DNA from: a virus
Lineage: Duplodnaviria > Caudoviricetes
Reading direction: 5' to 3' (one strand)
Virus record (IMG/VR): IMGVR_UViG_3300043443_000305
Location: 1 to 31,443 of that record
Length of the DNA stretch: 31,443 nucleotides
The translations under genes and the position numbers were made by a program. Of the stretch, positions 5,097 through 29,592 are shown in pieces (position 1 is the first letter of the stretch; the number at the start of each line of letters is the position of its first letter). A model generated the notes under the pieces. The model ran no database searches, was not told where the DNA came from, and was given only the letters and a program-made list of their open reading frames with translations.

Positions 5097-6469
5097 GCAA
5101 ATTAGTAATTTTTGATTTAGACGGCGTCTTGATTGATAGTAGAGACATACATTATGATGCGTTAAATCAAGCACTTGCTAACGTCGGAAATGAGTACGTT
5201 ATTGGGCGAGAAGAACACCTAAGCACGTATGACGGGTTATCCACAACTCGCAAATTGAACATGCTCACCGAAAATAAAGGGTTGCCTGCGGATAAGCATA
5301 ATCAAATTTGGCAAGATAAACAAGCCGCGACGCTTGATATTTTTCAAAAATTACAAAAAGATGATAAACTAATTTCTTTTATGCGAAAGCTGAAAGAAAA
5401 CAACATTAGCATTGCGTGCGCAAGTAATAGCATTCGTAATACCGTAAAATTGGTCCTTCTAAAACTAGGGATACTAGAATTCGTAGATTACTTCGTGAGC
5501 AACGAAGATGTGAAGAGACCAAAACCATTTCCAGAAATGTATTGGCGGTGCATGGTAGAATTAAATGCTGTGCCAAAAAATACCGTAATATTTGAAGATA
5601 GCCATATCGGCAGAAAAGGGGCTATAGATAGTGGAGCGCACCTAATTCCCGTAGAAAACGTTAGTGACTTGACCGTAGACAAAATTAATAGTGCGATAGA
5701 TTACCTGAGCGTCGACAAATCTACTAGCGTGCCATGGAAATCAGAAAAGATGAATGTGCTAATACCTATGGCTGGTGCCGGCAGCAGATTTGCTAGTGCC
5801 GGATACACATTTCCTAAACCGTTAATTGAAGTCAACGGTAAGCCGATGATTCAGGTTGTAGTAGAGAATCTAAACATAGACGCCAACTATATTTTCTTGG
5901 TGCAAAAAGAGCACTACGAAAAATACAGTTTACAATATTTGTTAGGACTGATAACGCCAAACTGCAAGATTGTGCTAGTTGATGGATTAACAGAAGGTGC
6001 CGCATGTACGACTCTGCTCGCAGAAAACCTAATTGACAATGATACGCCGCTGCTAATAGCAAACAGCGACCAATTTATTGAATGGAATAGTAATGAATGC
6101 CTCTATGCGTTTCAAGCAGACCAGATAGATGCAGGTATCCTAACCTTCACCTCAACACACCCTAAGTGGTCATATGCGAAGTTAGACGAAAATGGGTTTG
6201 TTAGCGAAGTAGCAGAAAAGAAGCCAATCAGCGAAAACGCTACGGTCGGTGTCTATTATTGGAAAAAAGGTTCTGACTACGTTAAGTATGCTAAACAAAT
6301 GATTTCTAAAGATGTTAGAACCAATGGAGAATTTTACGTTTGCCCTGTGTTTAACGAGGCAATATTAGACCATAAAAAGGTTCGGGTAAAAAAGATTGAG
6401 AAGATGTGGGGCATAGGTACGCCCGAAGACCTTAATACTTTTATTGCTAATTATAAGGGAAAATACTGA
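5093..6469 (+). CDS. HAD-family phosphatase fused to a BcbE-like sugar-phosphate nucleotidyltransferase
   Basis: N-terminal FDLDGVL, SNS, KPFP, FEDS..G HAD motifs; C-terminal IPMAGAGSRF...PKPLIEV.GKPMI, EGAACT, NSDQ, AEK, NGEFYV.P, GIGTPEDL; start placed at ATG 5093 (ATGA overlap). Confidence 0.88.
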   Translation: MSKLVIFDLDGVLIDSRDIHYDALNQALANVGNEYVIGREEHLSTYDGLSTTRKLNMLTENKGLPADKHNQIWQDKQAATLDIFQKLQKDDKLISFMRKLKENNISIACASNSIRNTVKLVLLKLGILEFVDYFVSNEDVKRPKPFPEMYWRCMVELNAVPKNTVIFEDSHIGRKGAIDSGAHLIPVENVSDLTVDKINSAIDYLSVDKSTSVPWKSEKMNVLIPMAGAGSRFASAGYTFPKPLIEVNGKPMIQVVVENLNIDANYIFLVQKEHYEKYSLQYLLGLITPNCKIVLVDGLTEGAACTTLLAENLIDNDTPLLIANSDQFIEWNSNECLYAFQADQIDAGILTFTSTHPKWSYAKLDENGFVSEVAEKKPISENATVGVYYWKKGSDYVKYAKQMISKDVRTNGEFYVCPVFNEAILDHKKVRVKKIEKMWGIGTPEDLNTFIANYKGKY

Positions 6470-7191
6470 TGAATAATTCAAATCCTTGCATTGTTTCGTT
6501 TTTCATGGACAATGTTGATAGAAAAACGGTAGATCTACAACAACAAGTTATCGCCAAATACAATAAAAGTAAAGTTCCTGTATACGCGATTAAAATTAAT
6601 GTTCCGCATGCTGTTGGTATAGATTACTTTTGGGCAATGAATGGCGTTAAGACTTCTCTTTTTGCTCCACACAATGTGGAGCAAACGCTAGACCACGATT
6701 CTGTGCTGATACTGGACATTGATTGTATTCCGTTGCACGAAGATTCTATCGATTACTATCTAAATGCAGCGGCAGAAGGCAAGGTTATCGGTAACGCACA
6801 ACGCTCCAATCATATTGATAACGGTCAGCACATGTTTGCTGCGCCTTCGGCAGCTGCTATCTCTAAGCAAACTTTCATTGATATCGGTTCGCCATCCGCT
6901 ATTCCGACTGAGCGGTCAGACGTTATGGAAGAATATACTTGGGAAGCAGAAAACCTTGGAAAAAAAGTTGACCTTATCATGCCTTTACGTTATGATAGTT
7001 CACCGTTAAGATTTTCTTGGGAAAAAGAACAACCTCCTTATTGGGCGTTGGCAGAAGGTTATCCTCCGTATGGAGTTGGTACAACGTTTGGAACAGAAAG
7101 CAAAGAATTGTTTTGGCATAGTTTTCAAATCTTTCATCCTGGACAGCAAGAAAGATTTTGGGCTAAGTGCGAATCGCTCCTTAATTCGTAG
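6469..7191 (+). CDS. putative glycosyltransferase (GT-A-like)
   Basis: VLILDIDCIP DxD motif after a hydrophobic strand; lies inside the glycan cluster. Confidence 0.55.
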   Translation: MNNSNPCIVSFFMDNVDRKTVDLQQQVIAKYNKSKVPVYAIKINVPHAVGIDYFWAMNGVKTSLFAPHNVEQTLDHDSVLILDIDCIPLHEDSIDYYLNAAAEGKVIGNAQRSNHIDNGQHMFAAPSAAAISKQTFIDIGSPSAIPTERSDVMEEYTWEAENLGKKVDLIMPLRYDSSPLRFSWEKEQPPYWALAEGYPPYGVGTTFGTESKELFWHSFQIFHPGQQERFWAKCESLLNS

Positions 7192-7199
7192 TAGAAAAT

Positions 7200-8132
7200 A
7201 TGAATAAACCTACATTGCTTATTTCTAACTACCACCTAGATTTCACTGGTGGTGGTACATACGTTATGATGATACTCAACGTCCTAAAAAAGTATTACAC
7301 GCTGTATACAGATAAAGACGATATTGGGTACTACTATCATGAATCTACTCCGTTTAGATTCTCCATGCTTGATAAGATAGAGCAGGCACATCCAAATCAA
7401 ACGTTTGACGTGCACCTGCTTGCGCATTATCGCGGTTGGATTTCTCCTAGAGGGAAAACGAATGCGCAAATACTATACTATCCGATTGACAAAAAAATGG
7501 ATGGTTGGGATAATTTGTTTGTTCTAAATGAATTTTGCGATAAAGCAGCGTCAATCTTTCCAGGAAAAAAGCACATTATCACGCCATATTATGATGCTAG
7601 CAATTTCTGCATTGGTGAAAAAACCGTTGACCTTATCAACATCGGTAACTACTTTATCGAAGGAGACGGGCATTCGAAAAATCAGCATCTGTTTATTGAG
7701 TGGTTTAAAACGCAGCCTCAGTTTAACAAACTAATCTTTCATGGCACAATATGTAACCTTCAATACTATGAATACCTCAGGCATCTAGCATCAACTGAAC
7801 CAAGAATTGAAATTAATCACAGTGCGCCACGCTCTCAAATTCTACGCGATTTATCTGCGTCCAAGTATTTGGTTCATGGTATAGGATATGGGAGAACAAA
7901 TCCTGCAGAAACAGAGCACTTTGGTTTGGTGGCTTTAGAAGCGTTGTTATGCGGTTGTCAACCTATCGTGCATAAATCTGGCGGATGCCCGGATATTCCG
8001 GGTGTGCAATCATACACCAATTTCAATGAAATGATTTTCCGAAACACCGACCCGATACAACTAAGAAATTATGGTATGATGTTTAATCAGCAAAATACTG
8101 AACTAGAATTGAAGAAGGCACTAAATCTATGA
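7200..8132 (+). CDS. glycosyltransferase, GT4/GT-B type
   Basis: N-terminal TGGG loop, HSKNQ, and the EHFGLVALEA EX7E signature followed by G...I...SGG. Confidence 0.85.
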   Translation: MNKPTLLISNYHLDFTGGGTYVMMILNVLKKYYTLYTDKDDIGYYYHESTPFRFSMLDKIEQAHPNQTFDVHLLAHYRGWISPRGKTNAQILYYPIDKKMDGWDNLFVLNEFCDKAASIFPGKKHIITPYYDASNFCIGEKTVDLINIGNYFIEGDGHSKNQHLFIEWFKTQPQFNKLIFHGTICNLQYYEYLRHLASTEPRIEINHSAPRSQILRDLSASKYLVHGIGYGRTNPAETEHFGLVALEALLCGCQPIVHKSGGCPDIPGVQSYTNFNEMIFRNTDPIQLRNYGMMFNQQNTELELKKALNL

Positions 8133-8587
8133 AATCATTAAACTTAGGTTGCGGAAACGACTATAGAGAAGGATGGGTTAATGTTGACGTCGGTAATTGC
8201 AAAAAAGACGTTGAGCATAACTTAGAAAATTTCCCGTATCCTTTCCAAGACAGCGAATTTTCAACGGTCTTGATGCAGCATTGTATTGAGCATATTTCTA
8301 GAGAAAATTTTCCTAAATGTGTTAGGGAGTTACATCGCGTAACTGCCGCAGGAGGAAAGATATATATTTCTGCGCCATATTATCTTTCGCGAAATGCGTT
8401 TACAGACTTCACCCATAAGAATTTTATGACTGAAGAAAGTTTCGCGTATTTCGACAAAAATCATCCTCTTAGAGAATTGGGAATTATCTATGGATTAAAT
8501 TTTGAATTTAACGTTACCGTTGGGTTAGATAGAGATAGGTTCCACCCAGAAGTCAATGTACACTATGAGTTAGAGGTCATTAAATGA
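8129..8587 (+). CDS. class I SAM-dependent methyltransferase-like protein
   Basis: LNLGCG...GWVNVD, PYPF.D, HCIEH, ELHRV...GG and DFTH motifs. Confidence 0.82.
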   Translation: MKSLNLGCGNDYREGWVNVDVGNCKKDVEHNLENFPYPFQDSEFSTVLMQHCIEHISRENFPKCVRELHRVTAAGGKIYISAPYYLSRNAFTDFTHKNFMTEESFAYFDKNHPLRELGIIYGLNFEFNVTVGLDRDRFHPEVNVHYELEVIK

Positions 8588-9558
8588 AAAAAGTAGCATT
8601 CGTAACCGGAACGACAGGACAAGATGGTCCTTACCTTTCTAAACTTCTTTTAGAAAAGGGTTACAAGGTTTATGGTTTGGTAAAGAGATACTCTAACCCG
8701 AACTTAGACAATCTTAAATTTCTCGGTATTGAGAACGATGTTGAGTTGGTTACTGGCGACATTACAGATGAAAATTCTGTTAACCACTTGATGAAGAATA
8801 TCAAACCGCATGAATTTTATAACTTGGCTGCTCAAAGTTTCGTTGGCGTGAGTTGGGAACTCAATAAACTTACAACTGAAGTCAATGCTGTTGGTCCTTT
8901 GAATATCTTAAATGCTATCAAGAGCAACAGTCCAACTACAAAGTATTACCAAGCCAGCACTAGCGAGATGTATGGAAATAGCGATGGGTCTATGCAAAAT
9001 GAATTAACGGCATTTAGACCTAGAAGCCCGTATGGTGTTTCTAAGTTGTATGCTTATTGGATTACAATCAACTTTAGAGAAAGTTATAGCATCCATGCTA
9101 GCAACGGAATTCTTTTCAATCACGAAAGTCCTTTGCGCGGAATTGAATTCGTGACTAGAAAAATTACTGACGGTATTGCTAAGATTAAGTTGGGCAAAGC
9201 AGATAAAATTTCTCTAGGAAATCTAGAGGCTAAACGCGATTGGGGTTTTGCCGGAGACTATGCTGAAGCCATGTGGTTGATGCTGCAGCAAGAAGAACCG
9301 GATGACTATGTAATTTCTACTGGCTTACAGCATAGCATTGAAGATGTTCTTGCTGTAGGGTTTAATCACGTGGGAATTACGGACTGGAAAAAATACATTG
9401 AATCTGATTCTAGGTTCAAACGACCTGCAGATCTGTATAGCCTTTGCGGCGATAGTACGAAGGCTAGAGAAAAACTAGGTTGGGCACCTAAAACTCAATT
9501 TGAAGACATGATTAAAATGATGGTAGATGTTGACTTAGGGAGAAATAAAAATGTTTGA
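8584..9558 (+). CDS. gmd: GDP-mannose 4,6-dehydratase
   Basis: TGTTGQDG, YNLAAQSFV, YQASTSEMYG, PRSPYGVSK (YxxxK), GILFNHESPLRG.EFVTRKI, LGNL.AKRDWG. Confidence 0.96.
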   Translation: MKKVAFVTGTTGQDGPYLSKLLLEKGYKVYGLVKRYSNPNLDNLKFLGIENDVELVTGDITDENSVNHLMKNIKPHEFYNLAAQSFVGVSWELNKLTTEVNAVGPLNILNAIKSNSPTTKYYQASTSEMYGNSDGSMQNELTAFRPRSPYGVSKLYAYWITINFRESYSIHASNGILFNHESPLRGIEFVTRKITDGIAKIKLGKADKISLGNLEAKRDWGFAGDYAEAMWLMLQQEEPDDYVISTGLQHSIEDVLAVGFNHVGITDWKKYIESDSRFKRPADLYSLCGDSTKAREKLGWAPKTQFEDMIKMMVDVDLGRNKNV

Positions 9559-10195
9559 AGCGCACGAAGGCAAAGCCTTTTCTCAGCAAGGGGAAGATGG
9601 CATCATCCAGCACATCTTTAATGTTATTGGAACCACTAACAAAATTGCAGCAGAAATTGGAGTTTGGGCAAATTTTCCAGAATGCAATACTATGTATCTT
9701 GCCCTTACTGGTTGGAAGACGTTTTGGTTTGATATGAATTATGTTGACTCGTCAAAGTTTAACTTGGTCGATAATACATTTGTTTTACAGAAATTGACTG
9801 CGGATAACGTTGCGGAAGAATTTAAGAAAGTTTCTGTTCCATTTGAAATCGATTTGCTTTCGATAGATATTGACGGCAACGACTACCATCTTCGTGAAGC
9901 ATTAAGCGAATATAGACCAAGAGTTTGTATTCAAGAATATAACGGATGCTTTGATGCAACAACTCAACACATTATGCCAAGAAATGACAATTACGTTTTG
10001 TGTGATAGGTCATTTGGTGCGAGTTTGAAGTCAATGGAACTCCAAGCGGAAAGACAAGGCTACGATCTTGTCTATTGCGGTGAAGGCGGCGTCAACGCAT
10101 TTTTTATTAGAAAAGATGTAAATCCGTTCGGAAATATTTCTAGTGAAAAAGCATGGAAAAAGTTATTTTGGGCAGATGGTGATTGGTTAAGATAA
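9551..10195 (+). CDS. FkbM-like methyltransferase domain protein
   Basis: FSQQGEDGII, AEIG, DLLSIDIDGNDY, PRV...EYN, GASL and GVNAFF motifs typical of glycan-cluster methyltransferase-like proteins. Confidence 0.72.
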   Translation: MFEAHEGKAFSQQGEDGIIQHIFNVIGTTNKIAAEIGVWANFPECNTMYLALTGWKTFWFDMNYVDSSKFNLVDNTFVLQKLTADNVAEEFKKVSVPFEIDLLSIDIDGNDYHLREALSEYRPRVCIQEYNGCFDATTQHIMPRNDNYVLCDRSFGASLKSMELQAERQGYDLVYCGEGGVNAFFIRKDVNPFGNISSEKAWKKLFWADGDWLR

Positions 10196-17895: not shown

Positions 17896-18828
17896 ATGAC
17901 TGTACTTGTGACTGGTGGATTGGGCTTCATTGGCTCAAATTTTGTTATTCGTCATCTTGAAAAGTATCCTGATGAGCGAGTAGTTGTTGTAGATAATGAA
18001 TCTTATGCTGCTTCTAGGACAAACTTGTCTTGTGTTGCAGATAAGGTAATCGTGCACAAAGTTGATATTGCCGATAAAGATAAAATGAATAAGGTGATGG
18101 CAAAGTATATGCCGCATATCATCTACAACTTTGCGGCTGAATCTCATGTCGATAACTCTATCGCAGATGACTCGGTATTCTATCAAACTAACGTGATGGG
18201 GACATTGAATCTTCTTCACCTAGTAAAAGAATATCAAATCAAGTTGCTTCATGTATCAACAGATGAGGTGTATGGTTCGCTCAAACTGGACGACGAACCT
18301 TTTACTGAGGCTACTCCATATAACCCGTTGAATCCATACTCCGCAAGTAAAGCGGCATCTGACCATATGGTTAGGGCATACGTCAACACGCATAAAATTA
18401 AAGCAGTGGTGACTAATTGCTCGAACAATTACGGTCCTCGCCAGCACGCAGAAAAATTTATCCCTACTATTATTCGCAAAGCCAAAGCAAACGAATGCAT
18501 TCCTATTTACGGAAACGGTTACAATATTCGAGATTGGCTTTACGTTGATGACCACAGCGATGCTCTTATGCGTATCGGAGAAGCGTTTGTCTATGGCGAA
18601 AGATACAATATTGGAGGTCACAACGAACTCCGTAATCTGAACATGGCATGGTTCATTTTAGATCTTATGGGCAAGCCTCGCAGCCTAATTGAGTTCGTCA
18701 AAGACCGTCCCGGGCATGACGCTAGATATGCTATATCCACTAAGAAAATTCAAAAAGAACTTAAGTGGCGTCCTGCTATATCTCTTGAACTTGGAATGAA
18801 GAAAACTTTGGAGTGGTACAATGCGTAA
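17896..18828 (+). CDS. rmlB: dTDP-glucose 4,6-dehydratase
   Basis: TGGLGFIGSNF, FAAESHVDNSI, HVSTDEVYGSL, PYSASKA, CSNNYGP.Q..EKFIP, RDWLYV.DH, DRPGHD.RYA; AGGAG RBS. Confidence 0.96.
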   Translation: MTVLVTGGLGFIGSNFVIRHLEKYPDERVVVVDNESYAASRTNLSCVADKVIVHKVDIADKDKMNKVMAKYMPHIIYNFAAESHVDNSIADDSVFYQTNVMGTLNLLHLVKEYQIKLLHVSTDEVYGSLKLDDEPFTEATPYNPLNPYSASKAASDHMVRAYVNTHKIKAVVTNCSNNYGPRQHAEKFIPTIIRKAKANECIPIYGNGYNIRDWLYVDDHSDALMRIGEAFVYGERYNIGGHNELRNLNMAWFILDLMGKPRSLIEFVKDRPGHDARYAISTKKIQKELKWRPAISLELGMKKTLEWYNA

Positions 18829-19693
18829 AGGTATCGTTTTATCTGGCGGTTTAGGAACCAGACTCTATCCCTGCACAGAAGTTATTTCAAAGCAGCTGCT
18901 TCCTGTGTACGATAAGCCATTGATTTATTATCCTATCTCTACGCTGATGATGGCTGGCATTAGCGATATTATGGTCATCACTAACCCAGAAAACAACTAT
19001 CAATTTCAGACGTTGTTACGAGACGGTTCTCAGTGGGGCATTAACATTTGCTATGCTACCCAAAAAGAGCCAAAGGGTATTGCGGATGCTCTGCTAATTG
19101 CCCAAGGATTTATTGGTAAGGATGACTTTGCTCTAATCCTTGGAGATAACATCTACTATGGTAATGACTTGATGACTAAACTTCAAGTTGCTTCTGATGA
19201 CGTTACTATGAATACCCTATTCGCATATCGCGTAGCAGACCCTGAGCGATTTGGTGTACTTGAAACGGTCAACGGTAATCCCGTTCGTATTCATGAAAAG
19301 CCTACAACGCACGTTTCTAACTATGCGGTTACAGGTCTATATTTCTATCAAAATAAAGCGTTGCAATATGCTAGGGAACTCAAACCTTCTGCTCGTGGCG
19401 AACTAGAAATCACTGACCTCAACAATGTGTTGTTGCAAAACAAAGAGCCTATGTGGATTGAGTACATGAATCGTGGTATTGCTTGGATTGATACCGGAAC
19501 CTTTGAATCTCTTGCTGATGCTTCTACGTTCGTCGGTTCAGTACAAAAGCGAACAGGTACAATGATATGCTGTCCAGAAGAAATTGCATACAAGAATACT
19601 TGGATTAGCAAAGAAGAACTTCTTGATGCAGCGCATAGATACGCTAAGTCTGATTATGGTACATACTTGAGGAAGATAGCAGATGAATCTTAA
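18821..19693 (+). CDS. rmlA: glucose-1-phosphate thymidylyltransferase
   Basis: KGIVLSGGLGTRLYP, SKQLLPVYDKP, LILGDN, EKP, AVTGLYFY, PSARGELEITD, W.DTGT. Confidence 0.97.
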   Translation: MRKGIVLSGGLGTRLYPCTEVISKQLLPVYDKPLIYYPISTLMMAGISDIMVITNPENNYQFQTLLRDGSQWGINICYATQKEPKGIADALLIAQGFIGKDDFALILGDNIYYGNDLMTKLQVASDDVTMNTLFAYRVADPERFGVLETVNGNPVRIHEKPTTHVSNYAVTGLYFYQNKALQYARELKPSARGELEITDLNNVLLQNKEPMWIEYMNRGIAWIDTGTFESLADASTFVGSVQKRTGTMICCPEEIAYKNTWISKEELLDAAHRYAKSDYGTYLRKIADES

Positions 19694-20213
19694 AATTGCC
19701 CAATACGTCGATATTAAGTATTTCCACGATGACCGTGGTTACTTCTGCGAGACATTAAATCTATCTAAGCCACCATTTAATGAACTGACTTATATCCAAA
19801 GCAATATGTCAGTTAACAACAATGATGTGTTGCGAGGAATGCACTATCAGCATAAGTTCCCCCAAGGTAAGTTTTGCTATGCAGTATCTGGAGCAGCATA
19901 CGATTTTGTAATTGACTTGCGACAAAGTTCTCCAGACTTTTTAACTTGCCGCACTTTTTACCTTGAGCCAAAGGGACCAGCCGTTTGGGTTCCTCCTGGT
20001 TATGCTCACGGGTTTTTGTCTTGCCGAGATAACACAATATTTTCTTATCACGTTTTTGGAAATCCGTGGGTAGCAAGCGATGAACATTCTATCAACCCGT
20101 TGTCTGTACCTGATATTAAGCAACTGGTAGACAACAAAATATATTTGCGTATTTCACCAAAGGATATTGCTGGCTATGACTATGCTGCATCAAGTTGTCC
20201 CGTCTATGAGTAA
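19683..20213 (+). CDS. rmlC: dTDP-4-dehydrorhamnose 3,5-epimerase
   Basis: DDRGYF.E, Q.N.S, VLRGMHYQ, QGK, DLR..SP.F, VPPGYAHGF. Confidence 0.94.
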   Translation: MNLKIAQYVDIKYFHDDRGYFCETLNLSKPPFNELTYIQSNMSVNNNDVLRGMHYQHKFPQGKFCYAVSGAAYDFVIDLRQSSPDFLTCRTFYLEPKGPAVWVPPGYAHGFLSCRDNTIFSYHVFGNPWVASDEHSINPLSVPDIKQLVDNKIYLRISPKDIAGYDYAASSCPVYE

Positions 20214-21042
20214 AAGAATCGCCGTTTTTGGCTCCAACGGTCAAATTGGTAGCCACATGATTGACTTGCTGCAAGCAGGCAGTCACTACATGTACTTCGG
20301 GTTCAATAGCACTAACATAGACTATAGCAACCCCCAAGAAGTGCATCGTTGTATTGATATGTTCGAACCAGATGTTATCGTCAATTGCGTTGCATACACT
20401 AATGTTGCTGGCGCAGAAGAAAAAGAAAATCAGCGACTAGCATCACTGCTCAATATTCAGTTGCCTAAGAATCTTACAGATGCGGCTCGTCGGCATAATG
20501 CTCAACTCATTCACTTCTCTACTGACTATGTGTATGATGGTAAGAAGAACGAATATTTTGAGACTGATAAGATGAAACCTCTAAACAACTATGGTCTAAC
20601 TAAGAGCGTTGGCGACAAATTTGTTCTAGAATACGAACGCGCCAAGGTATTCCGAGTACAGTCTGTTTACTCTAATCGCAACAGTAATTTCTACAAAGCG
20701 ATAGTGGGTAAAGCAGAAAAGGGAGAACCCGTATCTGTAGTAGACGACCAATATACCTGCCCGATGTCTGCAGACTGGATTGCTAAGCAGGTACATAGAA
20801 CGTTGTTGATACCCAGCTATGGTCTATTTCATTTGTCTCCGAACAAGTTCTGTTCTTTCGCCGACTTTGCTGAAAGAATCATCGGTGGACGAGTTCCTTT
20901 AAAGCGGATTCGCTACAAAGAACTAGACAGTCCGGTACAGCGTCCACTAGTGACAATTTTAAACCATGAGAAGTTTAACCATGCATTTTTCCCCATCACA
21001 GATTCTTGGGAAGATGTGTACGAAGATTTTCTAATTAACTAA
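20206..21042 (+). CDS. rmlD: dTDP-4-dehydrorhamnose reductase
   Basis: GSNGQIG, VNCVAYTNV..AE, HFSTDYVYDG, P.N.YG.TK, VV.DQ, RP; start placed at ATG 20206. Confidence 0.94.
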   Translation: MSKRIAVFGSNGQIGSHMIDLLQAGSHYMYFGFNSTNIDYSNPQEVHRCIDMFEPDVIVNCVAYTNVAGAEEKENQRLASLLNIQLPKNLTDAARRHNAQLIHFSTDYVYDGKKNEYFETDKMKPLNNYGLTKSVGDKFVLEYERAKVFRVQSVYSNRNSNFYKAIVGKAEKGEPVSVVDDQYTCPMSADWIAKQVHRTLLIPSYGLFHLSPNKFCSFADFAERIIGGRVPLKRIRYKELDSPVQRPLVTILNHEKFNHAFFPITDSWEDVYEDFLIN

Positions 21043-21045
21043 ATA
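21039..21045 (+). promoter_or_regulatory. T4-like late promoter variant CTAAATA
   Basis: aaCTAAATA overlapping the rmlD stop, 31 nt before the next ATG (same spacing as the TATAAATA site at 17088). Confidence 0.65.
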
Positions 21046-21076: not shown

Positions 21077-22234
21077 ATGCTTAAATTTACGCAGTTTATT
21101 GTCGAGTCTCTCGAAACAGAAAAACTAACTCACCTCGAGCACGCAGAAGACCATCACGTCAATGCAGACGCTGCTGGTTTTAATCACGCAGTCAAGACTC
21201 TAGAAGCAGTACATCACAAACTATCTGGCAAAGAATCTAACGCAACCATCACAACCAAGTACGATGGTTCTCCTTCTATTGTCTTTGGTCATCACCCAGA
21301 GACAGGCAAGTTCTTTGTCGCATCTAAATCTGCGTTCAACAAGAACCCGAAGTTAAACTACAACGCAAAAGACGTAGACAAGAACCACGGTCACGCTCCT
21401 GGTCTTGCAGACAAACTAAAGACTGCACTCAAGCATTTACCGAAGGTTGCTCCTGGACACGGCGTCTATCAGGGCGACTTGATGTACACCAAAGACGATG
21501 TGCAAGAACACGGCGGTTCTTATCATTTCAAGCCTAATACTATCACTTACTCTTCTAAGAAAGATTCAGAAGAAGGTAAGAAGATTGGTAAGTCTAAGAT
21601 GGGCGTTGTCGTGCACACCAAGTATGAAGGAAAGAACTTCGAAGATATGAAGGCGAAGTTTGCTCCTAAGTTGGGAGGATTCTTTGAGCATAAAGATGTT
21701 CATGTAATGGATCCTCAAACAGACCACGGAAAAGCACACTACACTGCTGAGCAAAAAGACAAGTTTGAAAGCCATATTGAAAAGGCTAAGGCACTTGCCG
21801 CAAAGCACGACTATAGCCATCTAGAAGGTCATCGCGAACACGTTAAGACCTATATCAATCAAACTGTTCGTACAGGCGATAAGCCGACCGTAGAAGGTCT
21901 AAAGGCTCATATCACCAACGTCCACCAAAAGATGGCAGACAAATTAAAGACTCCTGCATCAAAGAGCAAGATCTCTGATAAGATGAACAAGACTTTGGCT
22001 CACGTGACAGCAAATGAAAAGCATTTTAAGAACACATTTGCTATCCATCACCACATACAGCAAGCCAAAGACCAACTAGTTAATGCCCTATCTTCTCACT
22101 CAACCTATGGTCATAGTATCAAAGGTAAAGCAGCAAAGCCAGAAGGTTTCGTTGCAGTGATAGATAATAAGCCGACTAAATTAGTTGATAGAGCTGAATT
22201 CAGTAGAGCCAACTTTGAGGCAAGACCACGATGA
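21077..22234 (+). CDS. conserved T4-like protein (DUF6267-like) with ATP-dependent ligase-type motifs and capsid-targeting-like N-terminus
   Basis: MLKFTQFIVE N-terminus; HLEH.ED, TKYDGSP (KxDG), YQGDL, EGFV and KLVDR.EFS; family name from memory. Confidence 0.7.
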   Translation: MLKFTQFIVESLETEKLTHLEHAEDHHVNADAAGFNHAVKTLEAVHHKLSGKESNATITTKYDGSPSIVFGHHPETGKFFVASKSAFNKNPKLNYNAKDVDKNHGHAPGLADKLKTALKHLPKVAPGHGVYQGDLMYTKDDVQEHGGSYHFKPNTITYSSKKDSEEGKKIGKSKMGVVVHTKYEGKNFEDMKAKFAPKLGGFFEHKDVHVMDPQTDHGKAHYTAEQKDKFESHIEKAKALAAKHDYSHLEGHREHVKTYINQTVRTGDKPTVEGLKAHITNVHQKMADKLKTPASKSKISDKMNKTLAHVTANEKHFKNTFAIHHHIQQAKDQLVNALSSHSTYGHSIKGKAAKPEGFVAVIDNKPTKLVDRAEFSRANFEARPR

Positions 22235-24087
22235 AACACGCAGTCTTTACATTCGGAAGATTTAATCCGCCAACAGAAGCAGGACACGGTAAACTCGTAG
22301 ATGCCGTTAAGTCTCATGCAGAAAAGGTTAGCGGCGACCACTTTGTCTTCCCGTCTCATTCTCAAGACGCAAAAAAGAATCCTTTGTCACACGAAGACAA
22401 GGTTTCTGCTATGCACAAAGTTTTCCCGAAAACAAACGTAGTATCTGATAAACACGTTAAGACTGCGATTGATGCGCTTAAGCATATCGAAAAGAAAGGC
22501 TACACACACGCTACTATGGTAGTTGGTTCTGACCGTGTACCAGAATTTCATAAGTTGCTTAACAAGTACAACGGCAAAGAATACAATTTTAAGAAGATAC
22601 ACGTTAAGTCTGCAGGCAATCGTGACCCAGATGCAGAAGGTGCAGAAGGTATGTCTGCTTCTAAACTCCGTGGTCTAGTGAAGTCCGGCAAAAGAGACGA
22701 GTTCATTAGCCACTATTCTAATAAGAAGGTTGGTGCTGAAATTCACGATAAGGTCAAGGCAGCAATGAGCGAAGAGTCTGTCGCTCCTGTCGGTATATTC
22801 TTATTTGGCGGACCTGGAAGCGGCAAGGACTACGTTCTTACAAACATTTTTTCTAAGTTTAATCTAGTTGAAGTGCAGGCTGACCAGTTATTAAACGGCT
22901 CTGCGCTACCTATCATTGAATACAATCAAAATGTCGTAATCAACTGCTCAGCCGAAAATTCTGCACAGATAGAGCACATCAAATCTCTACTAGAAGGTTA
23001 TGAGTTTGACCATGTATACGTTTCTGTTTCTAACAAAGTCAGTCGTCAAAGAAACGAATTACGTCTAAATCCTCTAAAGGAAGACGTGAGAATCGGTAAG
23101 ATACTGAAGGCAGAAAAGTTAGCCAAGTCATTAGACGAAGTGTTCACGTTTAACAACTCAATAAACCTAACAGAATCTACAGAGATGGAAAAGATCTTCT
23201 TTGCGTCTCAAATAGAAAAACTTCTTGAACGTCTAATCAACAAGGGATTAGTATTTGAGAAGAGTCCCAGTCCAAAATCATTTAGCCAATTAAGAGAGGA
23301 AAGCAAAAATGTTCGAGTTTCTAAGAAAGTTGTTCGGAATGAAGCCGAAGAATGCGACTGTGACGGAAACTGTGCATGTGGAGGAGACTGTGGTTGTGCC
23401 TCCTGTTCAGGAAGTGCCGGTGTCTCCCCCAGTTCCTCCGGTTTCCAAGAAGAAAACGGCAGCACGGTCAAAATCCTCAACAGCCTCAAAAGCAAAGTCA
23501 AAGCCAAAAAAGGTGTAGGACCGACCGACTATGACGGTAGATTGGGAATCAATATCGGACTGATATCTGCCCCAACTACTGTCGGAGAGTCAGTTCAATA
23601 TCATCTAGAAAACAATATTTCTTTTACTAAGAACGTATATCGTCCTGGTTCAGAAATGTTCTTTGCTCTTATCAAAGAAGCCAAGAAGTTGTATGCCGAA
23701 GGAAAGTATCGTCCAGAAGACGAATACGAACTAGAAGTGTTGTCGAGCAACATCGGCGAAAAGGCAATCTATGAAGGCAAAGAAGTTCTTTTAGATTTCC
23801 CATTTGAGGTTCTAGATGAAGAAGGTTCTGACCCAACTAAGGGTCATGGTATCGGCAAACCGTTCCGTAAAGGCGGCGGCGGTGCTGTATACGTCAAGAG
23901 CGGTGATGGGGTAAAACTCGTCAACTTCAGTCAATCTGGCATGTCTAAGAAGTACAATGACCCAGGTCGTCTAAAGAGTTTTATGGCTAGACACCATTGT
24001 CTAACGAACAAAGATAAGACATCTGCATCTTATTGGGCTTGCCGTTGGCCAAGATACTTTAGTTCTGGCGGACAGCAGTGGTGGTAG
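22231..24087 (+). CDS. multidomain protein: HIGH-superfamily (cytidylyltransferase/NMNAT-like) nucleotidyltransferase + P-loop kinase-like domain + C-terminal conserved phage domains
   Basis: FGRFNPPT.AGH, KNPL, VVGSDR, SAG.RDPDAEG..GMSASKLR; then GGPGSGKD and SRQRN; C-terminal SFMARH.C..KDKTSA.YWAC. Confidence 0.8.
   Translation: MKHAVFTFGRFNPPTEAGHGKLVDAVKSHAEKVSGDHFVFPSHSQDAKKNPLSHEDKVSAMHKVFPKTNVVSDKHVKTAIDALKHIEKKGYTHATMVVGSDRVPEFHKLLNKYNGKEYNFKKIHVKSAGNRDPDAEGAEGMSASKLRGLVKSGKRDEFISHYSNKKVGAEIHDKVKAAMSEESVAPVGIFLFGGPGSGKDYVLTNIFSKFNLVEVQADQLLNGSALPIIEYNQNVVINCSAENSAQIEHIKSLLEGYEFDHVYVSVSNKVSRQRNELRLNPLKEDVRIGKILKAEKLAKSLDEVFTFNNSINLTESTEMEKIFFASQIEKLLERLINKGLVFEKSPSPKSFSQLREESKNVRVSKKVVRNEAEECDCDGNCACGGDCGCASCSGSAGVSPSSSGFQEENGSTVKILNSLKSKVKAKKGVGPTDYDGRLGINIGLISAPTTVGESVQYHLENNISFTKNVYRPGSEMFFALIKEAKKLYAEGKYRPEDEYELEVLSSNIGEKAIYEGKEVLLDFPFEVLDEEGSDPTKGHGIGKPFRKGGGGAVYVKSGDGVKLVNFSQSGMSKKYNDPGRLKSFMARHHCLTNKDKTSASYWACRWPRYFSSGGQQWW
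23309..23518 (+). CDS. nested overprinted small protein (+1 frame): amphipathic N-terminus, Pro/Val linker, Lys-rich tail
   Basis: GAGGA RBS 8 nt upstream of ATG; MFEFLRKLFG...PPVQEVPVSPPVPP...KKKTAARSKSSTASKAKSKPKKV; host frame reads as low-complexity by-product here. Confidence 0.6.
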   Translation: MFEFLRKLFGMKPKNATVTETVHVEETVVVPPVQEVPVSPPVPPVSKKKTAARSKSSTASKAKSKPKKV

Positions 24088-24357: not shown

Positions 24358-27300
24358 ATGGCATCATCAAAAGAAAGAGCATGGTTAGCTGCTCATCAAA
24401 AGGGTTCGAAAGCATTAGTTGCCAAACTAGATAAGGCACATGCGAATAATCCTGAATACCAAGCATTCAAAAAGAAGCATGGTCTAGAAAATACCTCTAG
24501 TGTTAAGCAGGTTTCTAAGTCTCAAGTTGATGCTAAGAAAGAAAAAGCACGTCAAGCATTAGCCGCTAAGGCATACGGCGCCACCAAGGGAACTCGTATG
24601 GGTTCTGCTGATGGTACGGGCGAAACTCTCCGCGACACTATTGCGCCGCTTTCACCTGAACAGCACTCAGCTGTTAAGGCAGCAGAAAGAACAGCAAAGG
24701 CAGCCGCCAAGCCTGCTAAGCCAAAGAAAGAAAAGAAGGCAGCAGCAAAGCCAGAAGAATCTCGCCTAGACATAATTAAGCGTCTAGCCGCAAAAAGAAC
24801 AATCAATGCACCTCCTGTTCCAGCAAAAACATTGCGTAGAATCGCTGCTGTTGGTAACATGGAGCACGAACATGGTGGATTTGATGACCTATCAGATACA
24901 AGTTATGGTGGATATCGTGGAAGATATAATATGGATGAAGCAGCACCGCTAGACCACGAAAGCGCAAATGCAAGAAGAGTTGCTGCTATGCCAAAGGGTT
25001 CTATTCTAGGTTCTAAGGATGATATCAAAGCGCATCTAGAGTACCTAAAAGCAAGACACGCGCATCTTAAGAAGTTCGGTTACTCTACTAAACAAGTTGC
25101 AGATAAGATTGGACGAGTCAATCATCTTCTTACGCAAAAAGAAGAAGTCGAGCAGATTGATGAGGCTTCAGATTTACACTGCCCAAGCTGTGGGACAAAC
25201 CACGGTAAAGATAGAGAAAATCCAAAAGATAAAACATGCAGTTCTTGTGGGCATAAGTTTAAAAATATACATGGATATAGCAATGAAACGGACAATGATT
25301 CAGAAGCAGCTGCTTGGTTAAAGCGATTTAATGCAAAAAATCCCGTGAAAGAAGATGCAACTTCTGCGATGTCAGATAAACTAAAAAAGAAAAATATCAA
25401 CACCAAAGATATGAATACGCTTGGCAAATTGCACGCATTGATGAGCAAAGAAAAAGCAAAGCGTAAACCTGTATCTGAGTCATATGATAAGGCAGAAGAA
25501 CATAAAGCAAAGGCAGCAAAGGCTTTAGAAACTAGTGATATGGAAGCATATCACCAGCATATGTCAAATCATCATGAAGAACTTGGTAAGTGGCACGAAT
25601 CAAAAGGTCGTGGAGACTTAGCCCAACGCTCATTCGATAAAGCAGAAAAGCATCACGAAATGAGCCTAAACCCAGATAAGTCTAAGACCTTAAAGAGCGT
25701 AAAAGAAGAAGTATGGGACGAGCCAAACCCTAAGAAAACTTCTAAGGCACTATCTGCTTCTCAAAAAGCAAGAGCCAAAGCAAGAGCAAGAGCAGCAGGT
25801 CGCTCATATCCAAATCTTGTAGACAACATGTGGGCATCTAAATTAGGCGAAGGAATTATTGATAATTTCGTTGCTAAGAAGATTGCTGCTTATCATGGCG
25901 ATAAGGTTAAGGGTTCTGTAGAGCAATCAGATGCTGCCCGTGAAGCCGTCACTAAGAAAATGGAGCCAATCAAGAGAAAGATTGAGCGCATCAAGGCTAG
26001 AGCGTCTTACAAAGATAAGTCTCACGCAAGACATGATGAGACCAAACTAGACCTCAAGCATGCTAATGATGAACACGCGGCACTCAAAGCAGAGCGCGCA
26101 AAACACTATGATGCATTTAAAAATGCATCAGCAGAAAGAGATTCCAATATTGCCTCAGACATGAAGACCTATGACAAGTATGGTCTTGTCGGTCTAGGTC
26201 TAAAACGTTTAAAGCAAAGAATGCAAAAGGAAGAAACCATGAAAGAAGGTTTTCTAAGCAAGTTGCTAGGCAAAAAGCCTGTAGCAAAACCAAAGACAAC
26301 TCCTGCCCATAAAAGTGTAGGATATCAGGGGCTTCCTGCAGAATGGAGCCAGGAAAAGCGTGGCAACGAATATTACGCCAATAAGCAAATGGCAGGACTA
26401 AAGAAGGAAGAAGCAATGAAAGACGAATACAAAGAACCATTTGAAGGCGGTAAGACTCCTTCTAAGAACAAGGGTATTGTAGCAGGCAAGAGCCGTCCTG
26501 AAGGAATGTCTCGCGTTGCTCACCTAGCCCGTCTAGCCCTAAAGAAAAAGGCTATGAAGGAAGGTTACATGAAGGCAAACATGCCGGAAGACGATGACGA
26601 TGGTGAGTCAGATATGGCAGAATATGAGCGTCAAGCAAAGAAAGGCAAGGGCGTTCGTGCATATGACAAGAACGGCAAACTAGTTGGCAACTATCGTAGC
26701 ATGGAAGATGCTAAGAAGTTCAAGCCTGGTCATACGTACAAAGAAGAAGTTACGCCAACACCAGTTCACAAGTTAAATCCTGGCTTGCAAGCAAAAATTG
26801 ATGCTGCTAGCAAAATGAAGAAGCCTCGTCAAGCAGGAACACCTTCTATTGATAAAATCAAACTTATCACTAGAGAAGAAAAAGATTATGCAGCAGTTGC
26901 ACCAGTTCCTGGTGATAAGTGGAAGTCACATGCTATCATGGTACACCCAGAAACTAAGCAAAGAGTTGTAGTTCTTCGTAAGAATGCAAAAAACTATCCA
27001 AAAGCCGATGGTTGGAAAGAAGTTGCCCCAGGCATGAAAGAAGAAGCCGAGCAGATTGATGAAATGGATTCAGAAGGTTATAGAGGAACCAGCGATCCGC
27101 ATTATAGCTCTTTCGCCGGTAAGAAGTGGATAGAAGCAAAAGTAATTACTCCTAAACAGGCAGCAAAAGGTGCTGCAAAAATCTTTAAAAATATTCTTAA
27201 GAAGAAACCAAAACATGTAAAAGAAGAAGCCGAGCAGATTGATGAAGTGATTTCTGCAAAAGAAAGAAAGTGGAGAGAAGCTGTCATCGATAGACACGGC

Positions 27301-27957
27301 GATACTGTCAGATTTAAAAAGAAAAGACATGTCGACGCTAAAACGTACCATACAGTAGCATTCAAGGGTAATAGCGACAAATATGTTGGTAATTTCTTGC
27401 ACTCTGGCAAGATGGCGGGCGGCGCAACGTTCCCAGCACGCGCTGGCGCTGGCGGTAAATGGACAGAAGTATCAGAAGATATTGAGCAGATTCAAGAAGT
27501 TGGTCCGCAAAAGAAAATGAGAAGAATGCTCAACAAACTCCGTGATGCTCGTGCTGGCGAAAAGTATAAGAGAACATCTGGTATGCCAGTACCTGACCGC
27601 GAGCCTGGGCATAAGGACACAGTAGACCACAACAAGGCACTCGGTCGTGCTCTTCGTAAACTAGGTCCTGCAAAACTTGCTGAAGTACTAAAGCCATCTA
27701 TGGGCGCAGATGAATATGTTAGCCACTTTGTTCGTTCAAAGAATCCTAAATTTGAAGGCAAGTCGAAGGCAAAGCGTATTCAGATGGCTCTTGGCGCATA
27801 CTATGGCGATAAGAAAGGCATGAAAGAAGGTCTAGACCCAGTTGGAAAAGAAGATGCAGACGTAAACAACGACGGCAAGCATGGTCATTCAACTGACAAG
27901 TACTTGCTAAAGCGTCGTGCTGCTATCTCTAAGGCAATGGCTAAGAAAGGCAAATAA
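24358..27957 (+). CDS. 1199-aa Lys/Ala-rich modular protein, probable capsid-internal polyprotein
   Basis: short basic modules separated by KEE/EQIDE/MKEG-type acidic motifs; contains CxxC-CxxC, His-rich, NUMOD1-like and DxDxxNDG segments. Confidence 0.7.
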   Translation: MASSKERAWLAAHQKGSKALVAKLDKAHANNPEYQAFKKKHGLENTSSVKQVSKSQVDAKKEKARQALAAKAYGATKGTRMGSADGTGETLRDTIAPLSPEQHSAVKAAERTAKAAAKPAKPKKEKKAAAKPEESRLDIIKRLAAKRTINAPPVPAKTLRRIAAVGNMEHEHGGFDDLSDTSYGGYRGRYNMDEAAPLDHESANARRVAAMPKGSILGSKDDIKAHLEYLKARHAHLKKFGYSTKQVADKIGRVNHLLTQKEEVEQIDEASDLHCPSCGTNHGKDRENPKDKTCSSCGHKFKNIHGYSNETDNDSEAAAWLKRFNAKNPVKEDATSAMSDKLKKKNINTKDMNTLGKLHALMSKEKAKRKPVSESYDKAEEHKAKAAKALETSDMEAYHQHMSNHHEELGKWHESKGRGDLAQRSFDKAEKHHEMSLNPDKSKTLKSVKEEVWDEPNPKKTSKALSASQKARAKARARAAGRSYPNLVDNMWASKLGEGIIDNFVAKKIAAYHGDKVKGSVEQSDAAREAVTKKMEPIKRKIERIKARASYKDKSHARHDETKLDLKHANDEHAALKAERAKHYDAFKNASAERDSNIASDMKTYDKYGLVGLGLKRLKQRMQKEETMKEGFLSKLLGKKPVAKPKTTPAHKSVGYQGLPAEWSQEKRGNEYYANKQMAGLKKEEAMKDEYKEPFEGGKTPSKNKGIVAGKSRPEGMSRVAHLARLALKKKAMKEGYMKANMPEDDDDGESDMAEYERQAKKGKGVRAYDKNGKLVGNYRSMEDAKKFKPGHTYKEEVTPTPVHKLNPGLQAKIDAASKMKKPRQAGTPSIDKIKLITREEKDYAAVAPVPGDKWKSHAIMVHPETKQRVVVLRKNAKNYPKADGWKEVAPGMKEEAEQIDEMDSEGYRGTSDPHYSSFAGKKWIEAKVITPKQAAKGAAKIFKNILKKKPKHVKEEAEQIDEVISAKERKWREAVIDRHGDTVRFKKKRHVDAKTYHTVAFKGNSDKYVGNFLHSGKMAGGATFPARAGAGGKWTEVSEDIEQIQEVGPQKKMRRMLNKLRDARAGEKYKRTSGMPVPDREPGHKDTVDHNKALGRALRKLGPAKLAEVLKPSMGADEYVSHFVRSKNPKFEGKSKAKRIQMALGAYYGDKKGMKEGLDPVGKEDADVNNDGKHGHSTDKYLLKRRAAISKAMAKKGK
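27037..27246 (+). repeat. 27-bp perfect direct repeat (27037-27063, 27220-27246) encoding KEEAEQIDE; third copy 25138-25163 with one mismatch over 26 nt
   Basis: aaagaagaagccgagcagattgatgaa read twice; aaagaagaagtcgagcagattgatga at 25138. Confidence 0.92.
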
Positions 27958-27959
27958 GT

Positions 27960-28154
27960 ATGGATACGGAAAAAGAAAATACAGCTGGCGAAACGCAGAA
28001 AGTAAAATTTCGCCAGTTCCGTTCTAAGTTGAAGAAAACTAGAGACGGAGTAAATCTTGACCCGAAATTAGCGAATACTCGTAGCATGCCAAACGCAGTG
28101 CACGATACAACGTCTGCTGCAGAATCTGGAGCGAATTCTAATGTTAAAGTTTAA
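27960..28154 (+). CDS. small hypothetical protein
   Basis: 64-aa ORF tightly packed between neighbours; internal KFRQFR motif. Confidence 0.55.
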   Translation: MDTEKENTAGETQKVKFRQFRSKLKKTRDGVNLDPKLANTRSMPNAVHDTTSAAESGANSNVKV

Positions 28155-28596
28155 AGATTTTTTCGTTGAGCAAGATGAAACTCTAGATATCGAGACTCCT
28201 CATCTAGAAGCAATTATGAACAACATCAATGCTGACTTGGATGCTCTGGGCGATAGAGTATTCCAAAATAGTGTAGTGTTTATCAACACTGTCCGCGGCA
28301 CAGTAGAAAGGTATGGAATTCTAATTCCACCGAGTTACGGTACAGCTGCTATGAGCATGAGCGCAGAACTAGTTTATAAACTAGGCGAGTCTGGTAAGTT
28401 TCTCTACGTTGTACATGACACTAATGAAGACGGTTTCGTTGAAGGGTACGCGCAAGTTGTCAACAACGAAGAACTAAAAGAATTGTCATCTTTAGATAGC
28501 GAAGATTGGATGAAGGATACCGAAGAATCTGAAATCCAACAAAAAGTTCCCTATAGACATAGAGACGACGATTCTGGAAACGACGACGAATATTAA
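28141..28596 (+). CDS. acidic hypothetical protein with capsid-targeting-like N-terminus
   Basis: MLKFKDFFVE start; GGAG RBS. Confidence 0.72.
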   Translation: MLKFKDFFVEQDETLDIETPHLEAIMNNINADLDALGDRVFQNSVVFINTVRGTVERYGILIPPSYGTAAMSMSAELVYKLGESGKFLYVVHDTNEDGFVEGYAQVVNNEELKELSSLDSEDWMKDTEESEIQQKVPYRHRDDDSGNDDEY

Positions 28597-28599
28597 TGC

Positions 28600-28986
28600 A
28601 TGTTTGATAACTTACGTGAAGACAACATTATTCTATATGCAATCAAATGCTATGACAGACCTAATTGCATAGTCAGTGAATTTGAAGAAGACTTCAAGCG
28701 CGTAAGTTACATAAAGAGGCTATTTAAGAAGTATAGAGAAACCGGAGAAATAAAAGAACGGTTGGTGCTAAATCATGTAGTATTGTTGCAAAACGTTTTC
28801 GGGTTCGTTCCGGCGACTAGAATTCTTTTTGTTCTAATACAAGAACAAGACTATGAAATATTGAAGCCGTTCTTGCTCTACACGTCGGCAATACCTGATG
28901 TGGTCTTAGGGATAAACGGTAAAGACATACACTCTAAAGAAATAGTCATGGATTGGAAGATAGTGGAAAAACTTCGAGTACTATAA
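28600..28986 (+). CDS. conserved T4-like phage hypothetical protein
   Basis: L.EDN..LYA.K.YD.P.C...EF.ED.KR..YIKRL..KY...GE.KERL.LNH...L.NVFG pattern recalled from T4-like phages. Confidence 0.8.
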   Translation: MFDNLREDNIILYAIKCYDRPNCIVSEFEEDFKRVSYIKRLFKKYRETGEIKERLVLNHVVLLQNVFGFVPATRILFVLIQEQDYEILKPFLLYTSAIPDVVLGINGKDIHSKEIVMDWKIVEKLRVL

Positions 28987-29012
28987 ACTTATATTCGAGT
29001 ACTATAAACTTA
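28973..29012. repeat. two perfect 19-bp direct repeats, 21-bp period
   Basis: ttcgagtactataaactta at 28973-28991 and 28994-29012. Confidence 0.92.
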
Positions 29013-29039
29013 AAGTATCACTTCAAAGCCAACATACTG

Positions 29040-29068
29040 ATTATACTGGTATCGGTAAAAAGAGTAAA
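29040..29068 (-). promoter_or_regulatory. antisense sigma70-type promoter
   Basis: minus strand reads TTTACT (29068-29063), 17 nt, TATAAT (29045-29040); same hexamers as the gene 41 promoter. Confidence 0.7.
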
Positions 29069-29073
29069 GTAAA

Positions 29074-29592
29074 ATGGTCAAAAATTTTAAACAGTTTGTC
29101 GAAGATGCTGTTCCAGTAATGGGAGTAGCAAACGTTGGCGGACCAGTATCCGATAACGATCCCCCAGGACCAAGTAAACTAAAGAAGGCACTTCTTAGAA
29201 GAAAGCGTCCTCTAGCAGAAGAAAATAAGATTTCTGACCACATAGAAAAGTTTAAGAGTTATGTTGCTATGGAATTAGGTTTGACTGATGTTCCAGAAGT
29301 AAATGTAATTGATAGCAGAGAAGAAGCCAAGGTCAATACTAGTTTTGGTGGTTACTCTCCTACAAACCGTAGTATCAATGTCAACGTTGGCGGTCGGCAT
29401 ATTGCTGACGTCTTAAGAACTCTGGCTCACGAATTAGTTCATCATAAGCAGAACGAAGAAGGGCGTCTTACTCGCTATGCTGGAGAAACCGGCAGCGAAT
29501 TTGAGAATGAAGCAAATAGCAGGGCTGGCGTTCTAATGCGCAACTACGGTAAAAAGAACCCAGGTATCTACGAAGATTATGAAAACACTTGA
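29074..29592 (+). CDS. HExxH zinc-metallopeptidase-like protein with capsid-targeting-like N-terminus
   Basis: MVKNFKQFVE start; SFGGY, DVLRTLAHELVHHKQ and downstream ENEAN (third ligand candidate). Confidence 0.75.
   Translation: MVKNFKQFVEDAVPVMGVANVGGPVSDNDPPGPSKLKKALLRRKRPLAEENKISDHIEKFKSYVAMELGLTDVPEVNVIDSREEAKVNTSFGGYSPTNRSINVNVGGRHIADVLRTLAHELVHHKQNEEGRLTRYAGETGSEFENEANSRAGVLMRNYGKKNPGIYEDYENT

Follow-up and report, generated by a model that had tools for sequence, protein, structure and literature searches.

The stretch of DNA analysed here (the window) comprises positions 1 to 31,443 of IMG/VR virus record IMGVR_UViG_3300043443_000305, a fragment of a T4-like phage. On its plus strand, positions 24358..27957 form a single open reading frame (ORF) of 1199 amino acids (aa), whose product, P0001, was described in an earlier sequence-only reading as a capsid-cargo polyprotein made of small modules strung between repeated protease-like sites. 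The ORF is confirmed: its frame is open through all the joints between modules, and a single unitig of sequencing run X1, possibly the source sample itself, spans the gene with zero differences. An assembly chimera was considered unlikely, given this unitig, the open frame and the collinear blocks found in the homologues P0002-P0004; neither frameshifting nor recoding needs to be invoked. One contig joint, linking 25166 to 27507 (depth 2.9, 29 letters), was too weak to count. As first described, the protein is very basic, with a net charge of +86 and an isoelectric point of 9.8.

Two overlapping searches, contributing 27 proteins and the best 150 of 1526, respectively, yielded 169 homologues. 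Cutting P0001 at joints supported by homology to these proteins produced 17 modules, A to Q, and 16 joints. The modules are 42-194 aa long, and 15 of the 17 predicted pieces are net basic. The expected module size of roughly 40-130 aa applies to most of them, the N-terminal module (194 aa) being larger. In the family as a whole, 76% of 1300 pieces are net basic, with a median length of 58 aa.

All modules lie on the plus strand, and their frequencies were counted among 170 proteins (P0001 and its homologues). Module A (24358..24939; 55/170) is the conserved N-terminal region and ends in M-D-E. Module B, with the long linker KEEVEQIDE (25138-25164), occupies 24940..25164 (16/170) and is relocated to residues 1176-1235 in P0002. 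Module C (25165..25353) has a zinc-ribbon-like CxxC...CxxC pattern, ends in V-K-E and is present as a 100% identical copy in P0005 (residues 631-693). Module D (25354..25479; 4/170), 42 aa long, ends in V-S-E. Module E (25480..25710; 47/170), a His-rich, helical and possibly metal-binding module with invariant His and Trp residues, ends in V-K-E-E. Module F (KARAKARA...; 25711..25851) ends in L-G-E, matches the 55-position family phrog_34011 (E=3.8e-21) and is fused to a nucleotidyltransferase in loci L117 and L118. Module G (25852..26247; 132 aa, 9/170) ends in KEETMKE. Modules H and I (26248..26562) meet at a KKEE joint, and I ends in M-K-E. Module J (26563..26748) consists of an acidic part and a NUMOD1-like beta-beta-alpha unit with a predicted strand-strand-helix fold, and ends in Y-K-E-E.

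Modules K and L (26749..27063) meet at TREE and are followed by the linker KEEAEQIDE (27037-27063); L, found in 31/170 proteins, is predicted to fold as a hairpin-helix mini-domain (predicted local distance difference test, pLDDT, 94-95). Modules M and N (27064..27498; 3/170 each), with linkers KEEAEQIDE (27220-27246) and SEDIEQIQE (27472-27498), lie in a region carrying DNA repeat family D1. Module O (27499..27684; 20/170) ends in L-A-E. Module P (FVRSKNPKFEGKSK...; 27685..27828; 56/170), which ends in M-K-E, is the most widespread, with at least 537 confirmed IMG/VR stretches. Module Q (27829..27954; 35/170) combines a calcium-loop-like Dx[DN]NDG loop, seen in similar form in 33 copies, with a helix; only the exiting helix is predicted. 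It is 72-75% identical to stretches of S-SCSM1 ORF92 and S-SM2 gp186. Specific residues are conserved in several modules (His/Trp, CxxC, DxDNDG). All 22 motifs named in the sequence-only reading are present in P0001, and its positions for the zinc finger (25180-25248) and the NUMOD1-like unit (26653-26718) are exact, the others falling inside mapped modules. Its domain names have sub-threshold matches: the NUMOD1 match (PF07453) scored 18.0 bits (E=0.0035) against a gathering cut-off of 22.8 bits, zinc ribbons matched below cut-off, and for module Q the Dockerin_1 match (E=0.045) was accompanied by no EF-hand family.

The modules are shuffled among relatives. The longest single alignment of any homologue to P0001 covers at most 39% of it, and of the 101 homologues with two or more modules, 35 have them in a different order; collinear full-length homologues, which would have contradicted the sequence-only reading, were not found. 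P0002, for instance, has the order A-D-E-F-H-I-J-K-L-N-B-P-Q plus foreign modules, and P0003, the 836-aa orthologue that occupies the corresponding position in the relative G001, reads A-G-H-I-J-K-P-Q. In L012 (2590-4765), this slot is divided between two genes, one for an A-type protein and the other for an I-E-P-Q protein; the break falls between modules, and module I opens a separate ORF. A sister polyprotein, P0038 (L021/L105), has a Dps/ferritin-like domain between Glu joints, and a similar stand-alone gene is found at L002:9063-9503. Two partial folding models, covering the module A region and modules J-Q, likewise show separate confident beads rather than a single continuous fold (predicted TM-score, pTM, 0.24-0.26); in the J-Q model (pTM 0.24), the beads are the NUMOD1-like unit (pLDDT 84-87), L, P and the Q helix. 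The J-Q alignment is a mosaic, and low-confidence parts of this model say little.

The modules are under purifying selection. The ratio of nonsynonymous to synonymous divergence (dN/dS) was 0.05-0.23 in 16 of 19 module comparisons, the other three being saturated; these values are similar to or slightly above those of flanking genes (0.06-0.09). Measured against the same orthologue, dS ranged ca. 25-fold, from 0.10 (modules I and K) to 2.6 (module A), compared with 0.87-2.6 for flanking genes, although the modules are short and the estimates noisy. Such wide differences in dS between modules of one protein suggest recent exchange, module by module.

Joints were scored by two classes of motif, Phi-x-E (Phi being L, I, V or M) and [KR]EE. 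Over the whole protein, Phi-x-E is not enriched (18 occurrences versus 14.8 in shuffled sequences, p=0.21), and motif enrichment was therefore rejected as evidence. Narrower patterns picked after the sequence had been seen were enriched over shuffles (EE.EQ, 3 versus 0.0; KEE, 7 versus 1.1). The non-random feature is the position of the motif, which coincides with homology breakpoints. When ends of blocks at least 30 aa long and at least 65% identical with unrelated flanks were compared to joint motifs, 70 of 90 ends lay within 5 aa of either motif (background 0.20; 16 of 22 distinct places), although ends are not independent and [KR]EE was included as a class only post hoc. For Phi-x-E alone, the numbers were 48 of 90 (background 0.16) and 14 of 22 distinct places. 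Masking the linkers still left 41% of the 222 unfiltered ends within 5 aa, compared to 16% in the background, and all-against-all comparison placed 402 of 657 breakpoints within this distance (background 0.20). At the level of sequence comparison, modularity and shuffling at Glu joints are shown.

Sixteen of the 18 Phi-x-E motifs of P0001 fall at 13 of its 16 joints, the remaining two being in module J. Glu residues inside modules avoid the motif: more than 10 aa from homology ends, only 1 of 45 Glu residues has L, I, V or M at P3, versus 17 of 48 near the ends (Fisher p=3.5e-5; depletion p=0.008). With a 6-aa zone, the contrast was 3 of 52 versus 15 of 41. T4 gp21 cleaves after L/I-x-E (as described in PMC9026906), and non-canonical xxE sites are reported to be cut more weakly (PMC12991175). 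By sequence, most P0001 joints resemble cutting sites of such a T4-type head protease. The relative G001 encodes gp21 (L005:10518-11162), and Phi-x-E is enriched in its scaffold gp22 (31 versus 16.5 expected) and in gp21 itself (13 versus 6.0), but not in its portal gp20 or terminase gp17.

The P0001 gene lies between the cytidylyltransferase and DUF7207 genes, i.e., in the block behind gp41 and outside the gp20-gp23 head cluster. The window contains gp43, UvsX and gp41, followed by a sugar-pathway block, DUF6267, the cytidylyltransferase, a cupin gene, P0001 and DUF7207. Its best cultured DNA polymerase matches are from cyanophages (50-52% identical), and sequencing runs holding most of the contig are freshwater or aquatic; no RNA run is listed among them. 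The block begins with the DUF6267 gene (21077..22234, plus strand), which has a start resembling the capsid targeting sequence (CTS) of T4. It is followed by a cytidylyltransferase/NMNAT-like gene with modules appended (22231..24087, plus strand), homologues of which have been detected in cyanophage virions. Downstream of P0001, genes at 28141..29592 (plus strand) have CTS-like starts at 28141 and 29074, with DUF7207 (28600) between them. Three neighbours (21077, 28141 and 29074) begin with CTS-like leaders, which gives the block the appearance of an operon for capsid cargo. A loose CTS pattern also picks out 22231, apparently a false match. Behind its leader, the 29074-29592 product has an HExxH metallopeptidase-like domain (weak matches).

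A late-promoter-like CTAAATA variant (21038..21045, plus strand) precedes DUF6267, upstream of the operon; in a relative, the same variant also stands ahead of DUF6267 (upstream of the orthologue, in L001) and ahead of gp18 (in L005). The exact late-promoter consensus, TATAAATA, occurred once, equal to chance expectation, and a scan for sigma-70 promoters was below chance. A late-promoter match, at 17088, is ahead of a full rmlB-rmlA-rmlC-rmlD (dTDP-rhamnose) set that stands straight after gp41 (17896-21042) and has the same order in L001. A 69-aa Lys/Pro-rich ORF (23309-23518, plus strand) lies inside the cytidylyltransferase gene in a different frame, and a similar nested ORF is present at L001:8930-9142. 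Genes for a glycosyltransferase, a HAD/nucleotidyltransferase, a methyltransferase and a sugar epimerase precede gp43 (4353-10195) and possibly function in DNA or surface glycosylation.

The link to the prohead comes from homologues. Among the best 80 of at least 537 confirmed module-P loci, some of them near-duplicates, the module is found between gp20 and gp21 in 36 and in the block behind gp41 in 42, with two loci fitting neither position; all 27 module-A loci are post-gp41. The position within the gp20-gp23 head cluster is thus occupied by module-P relatives only, not by P0001. In L052 and L066, a gp67-like prohead protein (phrog_1064) is followed, past an IQE or LEE, directly by module P, and module E is also found within head-core slot genes of L014 and L018. 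Modules of P0001 are therefore common to head-core genes. At L087:4950-5141, a 63-aa gene consists of a short leader and module P alone; none of the T4 markers tested was found in this locus. The portal gene gp20 of L023 (1263-4370) encodes 1035 aa and has an insertion that is presumably intein-like.

Leaders resembling those of T4 internal proteins (IPs; read from NC_000866) begin 40 of the 170 proteins. They are found in one of 55 module-A proteins versus 39 of 115 others, a contrast whose p-value is inflated by kinship. For the first 41 residues of module A, a bundle of three helices is predicted (pLDDT 81-92 over residues 1-40), one of which has a conserved [FY]xx[FW] motif. Because module A and the leader hardly ever occur together, and because A starts with a confident helical bundle, we hypothesize that it may be a substitute capsid-targeting domain replacing the T4 leader, despite its poor score on the leader profile.

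Virion proteomes of cyanophages provide further evidence. The NMNAT of S-SCSM1, ORF91, is reported as virion-associated by mass spectrometry (PMC9602691); ORF92 of the same phage, which shares module Q at 72%, is called a virion protein in its GenBank label. Table 3 of the S-CREM2 proteome paper includes gp154, gp155, gp156 and gp160 (PMC10665884). Of these, gp155 and gp160 are jointed basic proteins of the same block, and gp160 is related to P0016, not to P0001 itself.

Searches for function were less informative. No Pfam family scored above cut-off in P0001, no embedded peptidase was detected in Pfam-type searches, and a Pfam match at 1e-5 was found in 6 of 158 homologues. Per-module searches of Pfam and PHROGs and sequence searches of the PDB gave no usable function, and modules F, P and E had no match among cultured phage records. 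PADLOC, whose models cover defence and not counter-defence, returned 0 matches for 10 proteins. The best ESM Atlas match (0.79) is a lead only, with no usable match for module E. Foldseek found nothing for module A at E<=0.001 and, among viral structures, two unnamed matches for J-Q at this threshold; the best VIA-align hit for J-Q (Z 5.0) involved generic helices in a poorly aligned part. Blank structure searches do not demonstrate new folds.

The explanation we favour, and consider fairly probable, is that the chain is packed in the prohead and cut by a gp21-type protease into lasting, internal-protein-like peptides. Judging from the promoter motif and gene order, the chain of 17 mini-proteins would be made late. 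It would be loaded into the prohead core, as homologues in virions and gp67 fusions suggest, and the phage's gp21-type protease would cut it at Glu-ending joints, consistent with the motif match and its avoidance inside modules. The released small basic peptides, free of internal sites, would probably remain associated with the DNA in the manner of T4 internal proteins, as their charge suggests, and may enter the next host. A single loading event would then carry many peptides, with the joints doubling as in-frame exchange points and module A proposed as the replacement for the T4 leader.

Several observations weigh against this explanation. No T4-type CTS was found at the N-terminus of P0001, which starts MASSKERAW without a leader match, and its internal YxxF helix reached -3.8 against a leader profile, compared with at least 7.4 for the members of that profile. 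The 31-kb contig has no head genes and does not carry the phage's own gp21-type protease, though such a protease is encoded in both of two related records. The strict L/I-x-E form is present at only 6 of 16 joints, with V/M-x-E at 7 and neither at 3; the last three (KKEE, YKEE and TREE) lack a site, and some neighbouring modules may therefore stay joined. To this can be added the lack of whole-protein motif enrichment and the interdependence of breakpoint ends. Cultured homologues share at most one P0001 module, both cyanophage proteome papers allow for carry-over, and tryptic virion proteomics of the kind they report cannot separate cut from uncut proteins or cargo from carry-over (PMC9602691, PMC10665884). 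Finally, no module matched a known function in any search.

The rival that survives best, though we hold it unlikely, agrees that the chain is packed and cut, and assigns its pieces a role in head assembly, as core filler cleared like gp22, gp67 and gp68 fragments or as generic counter-charge for DNA. Module P, fused to gp67-like proteins and sitting in the gp67/gp68 slot, fits this view, as do the basic character of 76% of family pieces and the lack of any module with known activity; T4 core proteins are described as being cut to fragments that are mostly removed (PMC9026906). However, scaffolds are dense in sites, as in gp22 of G001; P0001 does not have such sites throughout, and its modules avoid them. 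Conserved His/Trp, CxxC and DxDNDG residues, low dN/dS and the predicted folding of several modules as mini-domains also argue against filler, of which high turnover is not expected.

It is quite unlikely that the chain remains uncut, as beads on a string whose joints are acidic spacers and stretches of recombination homology with an incidental resemblance to protease sites. The linkers do form a DNA repeat family, three joints lack the motif, and all 14 linker copies compared, several of them duplicates, use GAA GAA for the first two Glu residues. Related-phage contigs break off at 25167, 25349, 27063, 27215 and 27246, all of them joints, a weak observation from among the 20 loose ends listed. 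Yet synonymous variation is seen at the remaining linker codons, and P3 can be I, V or L, so the linker is conserved at the peptide level; in the family, 250 of 272 long EExExxxE linkers have I, V, L or M at P3, with P1' free to vary. Nor does an uncut chain predict avoidance of Phi-x-E inside modules or the same motif at the end of CTS-like leaders. That P0001 is a late nucleic-acid-binding or host-takeover protein acting in the infected cell and absent from virions is very improbable: its lack of a CTS, virion evidence that does not come from the P0001 gene itself and the carry-over allowed by cyanophage proteome authors are countered by modules common to head-core genes and leader-bearing proteins, and by neighbours with CTS-like starts.

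Cleavage into lasting peptides would make P0001 comparable to the T4 internal proteins IPI, IPII and IPIII (and Alt), which are also small basic products with Glu-ending protease-type sites, have content that is hypervariable between related phages, and carry leaders like those found here in neighbours and in 40 of 170 homologues. As read here, P0001 would work like T4 internal-protein loading and maturation, yet lacks the CTS; each T4 internal protein has one gene, one leader and a single Phi-x-E, whereas P0001 has 17 modules in one chain, and no sequence match of P0001 to T4 was found. Multiple candidate gp21-type sites are shared with gp22, gp67 and gp68, and some relatives carry fusions of module P to gp67-like proteins; unlike these core proteins, P0001 is basic, is encoded in the post-gp41 block, and restricts its sites to the joints that separate conserved modules. 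Polyvalent proteins, which their authors liken to RNA-virus polyproteins, are similarly multi-module, mosaic and predicted to be virion-borne; as described there, they have recognisable catalytic domains, with an embedded metallopeptidase (MPTase) in ca. 36% and not required of all (PMC5512222), while P0001 combines very small modules that lack annotation with repeats of a putative site for a head protease encoded elsewhere. P0001 is not an internal protein or a core protein of the T4 type, and is probably not a polyvalent protein either. In the accounts of SPN3US and phiKZ head ejection proteins, a prohead protease also cuts after Glu at several sites per protein, but the multi-cut parts are removed propeptides and the motif is A/S-x-E. 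Cyanophage S-SCSM1 ORF92, S-SM2 gp186 and S-CREM2 gp155/gp160 share the gene block, Phi-x-E joints and modules; these are 173-520 aa long and listed as hypothetical or virion proteins, with modules or processing unmentioned in those listings. We found no description of protease-jointed, shuffled polyproteins in T4-like phages in the literature searched, which left most subscription journals outside. The design is real, widespread and apparently undescribed in searchable literature; new in the case of P0001 are the depletion test, the module-wise dS, the gp67 fusion link and the leader-free lineage.

The polyprotein proposal of the sequence-only reading thus stands as regards modularity, joint shuffling and, through homologues, the link to the prohead core, while its suggestion of anti-defence effectors is unsupported, drawing on analogy with IPI (PMC3012670) and on module turnover only. 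A broader and tentative idea, possible but on the improbable side, is that freshwater and marine T4-like phages keep a large, recombining library of mini-proteins that are inserted at protease joints into head-cargo polyproteins, loaded in a single step and delivered at injection as a counter-defence or takeover cocktail, with module A as a second targeting domain. It would then be possible to list candidate effectors by the thousand directly from sequence, with the joints as the rule, and a leader-free targeting domain, if true, would be a new capsid-loading tool. Provided that cleavage does occur, tailed phages would use a polyprotein and the shared head protease to deliver numerous small proteins together, the joints would give the exact boundaries of 40-130 aa peptides that could be screened for DNA binding or counter-defence, and the recurrence of NMNAT-like enzymes and their neighbours in cyanophage virion proteomes would be explained. 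Many genes now listed as "hypothetical" in T4-like phages would then have been misread as single proteins.

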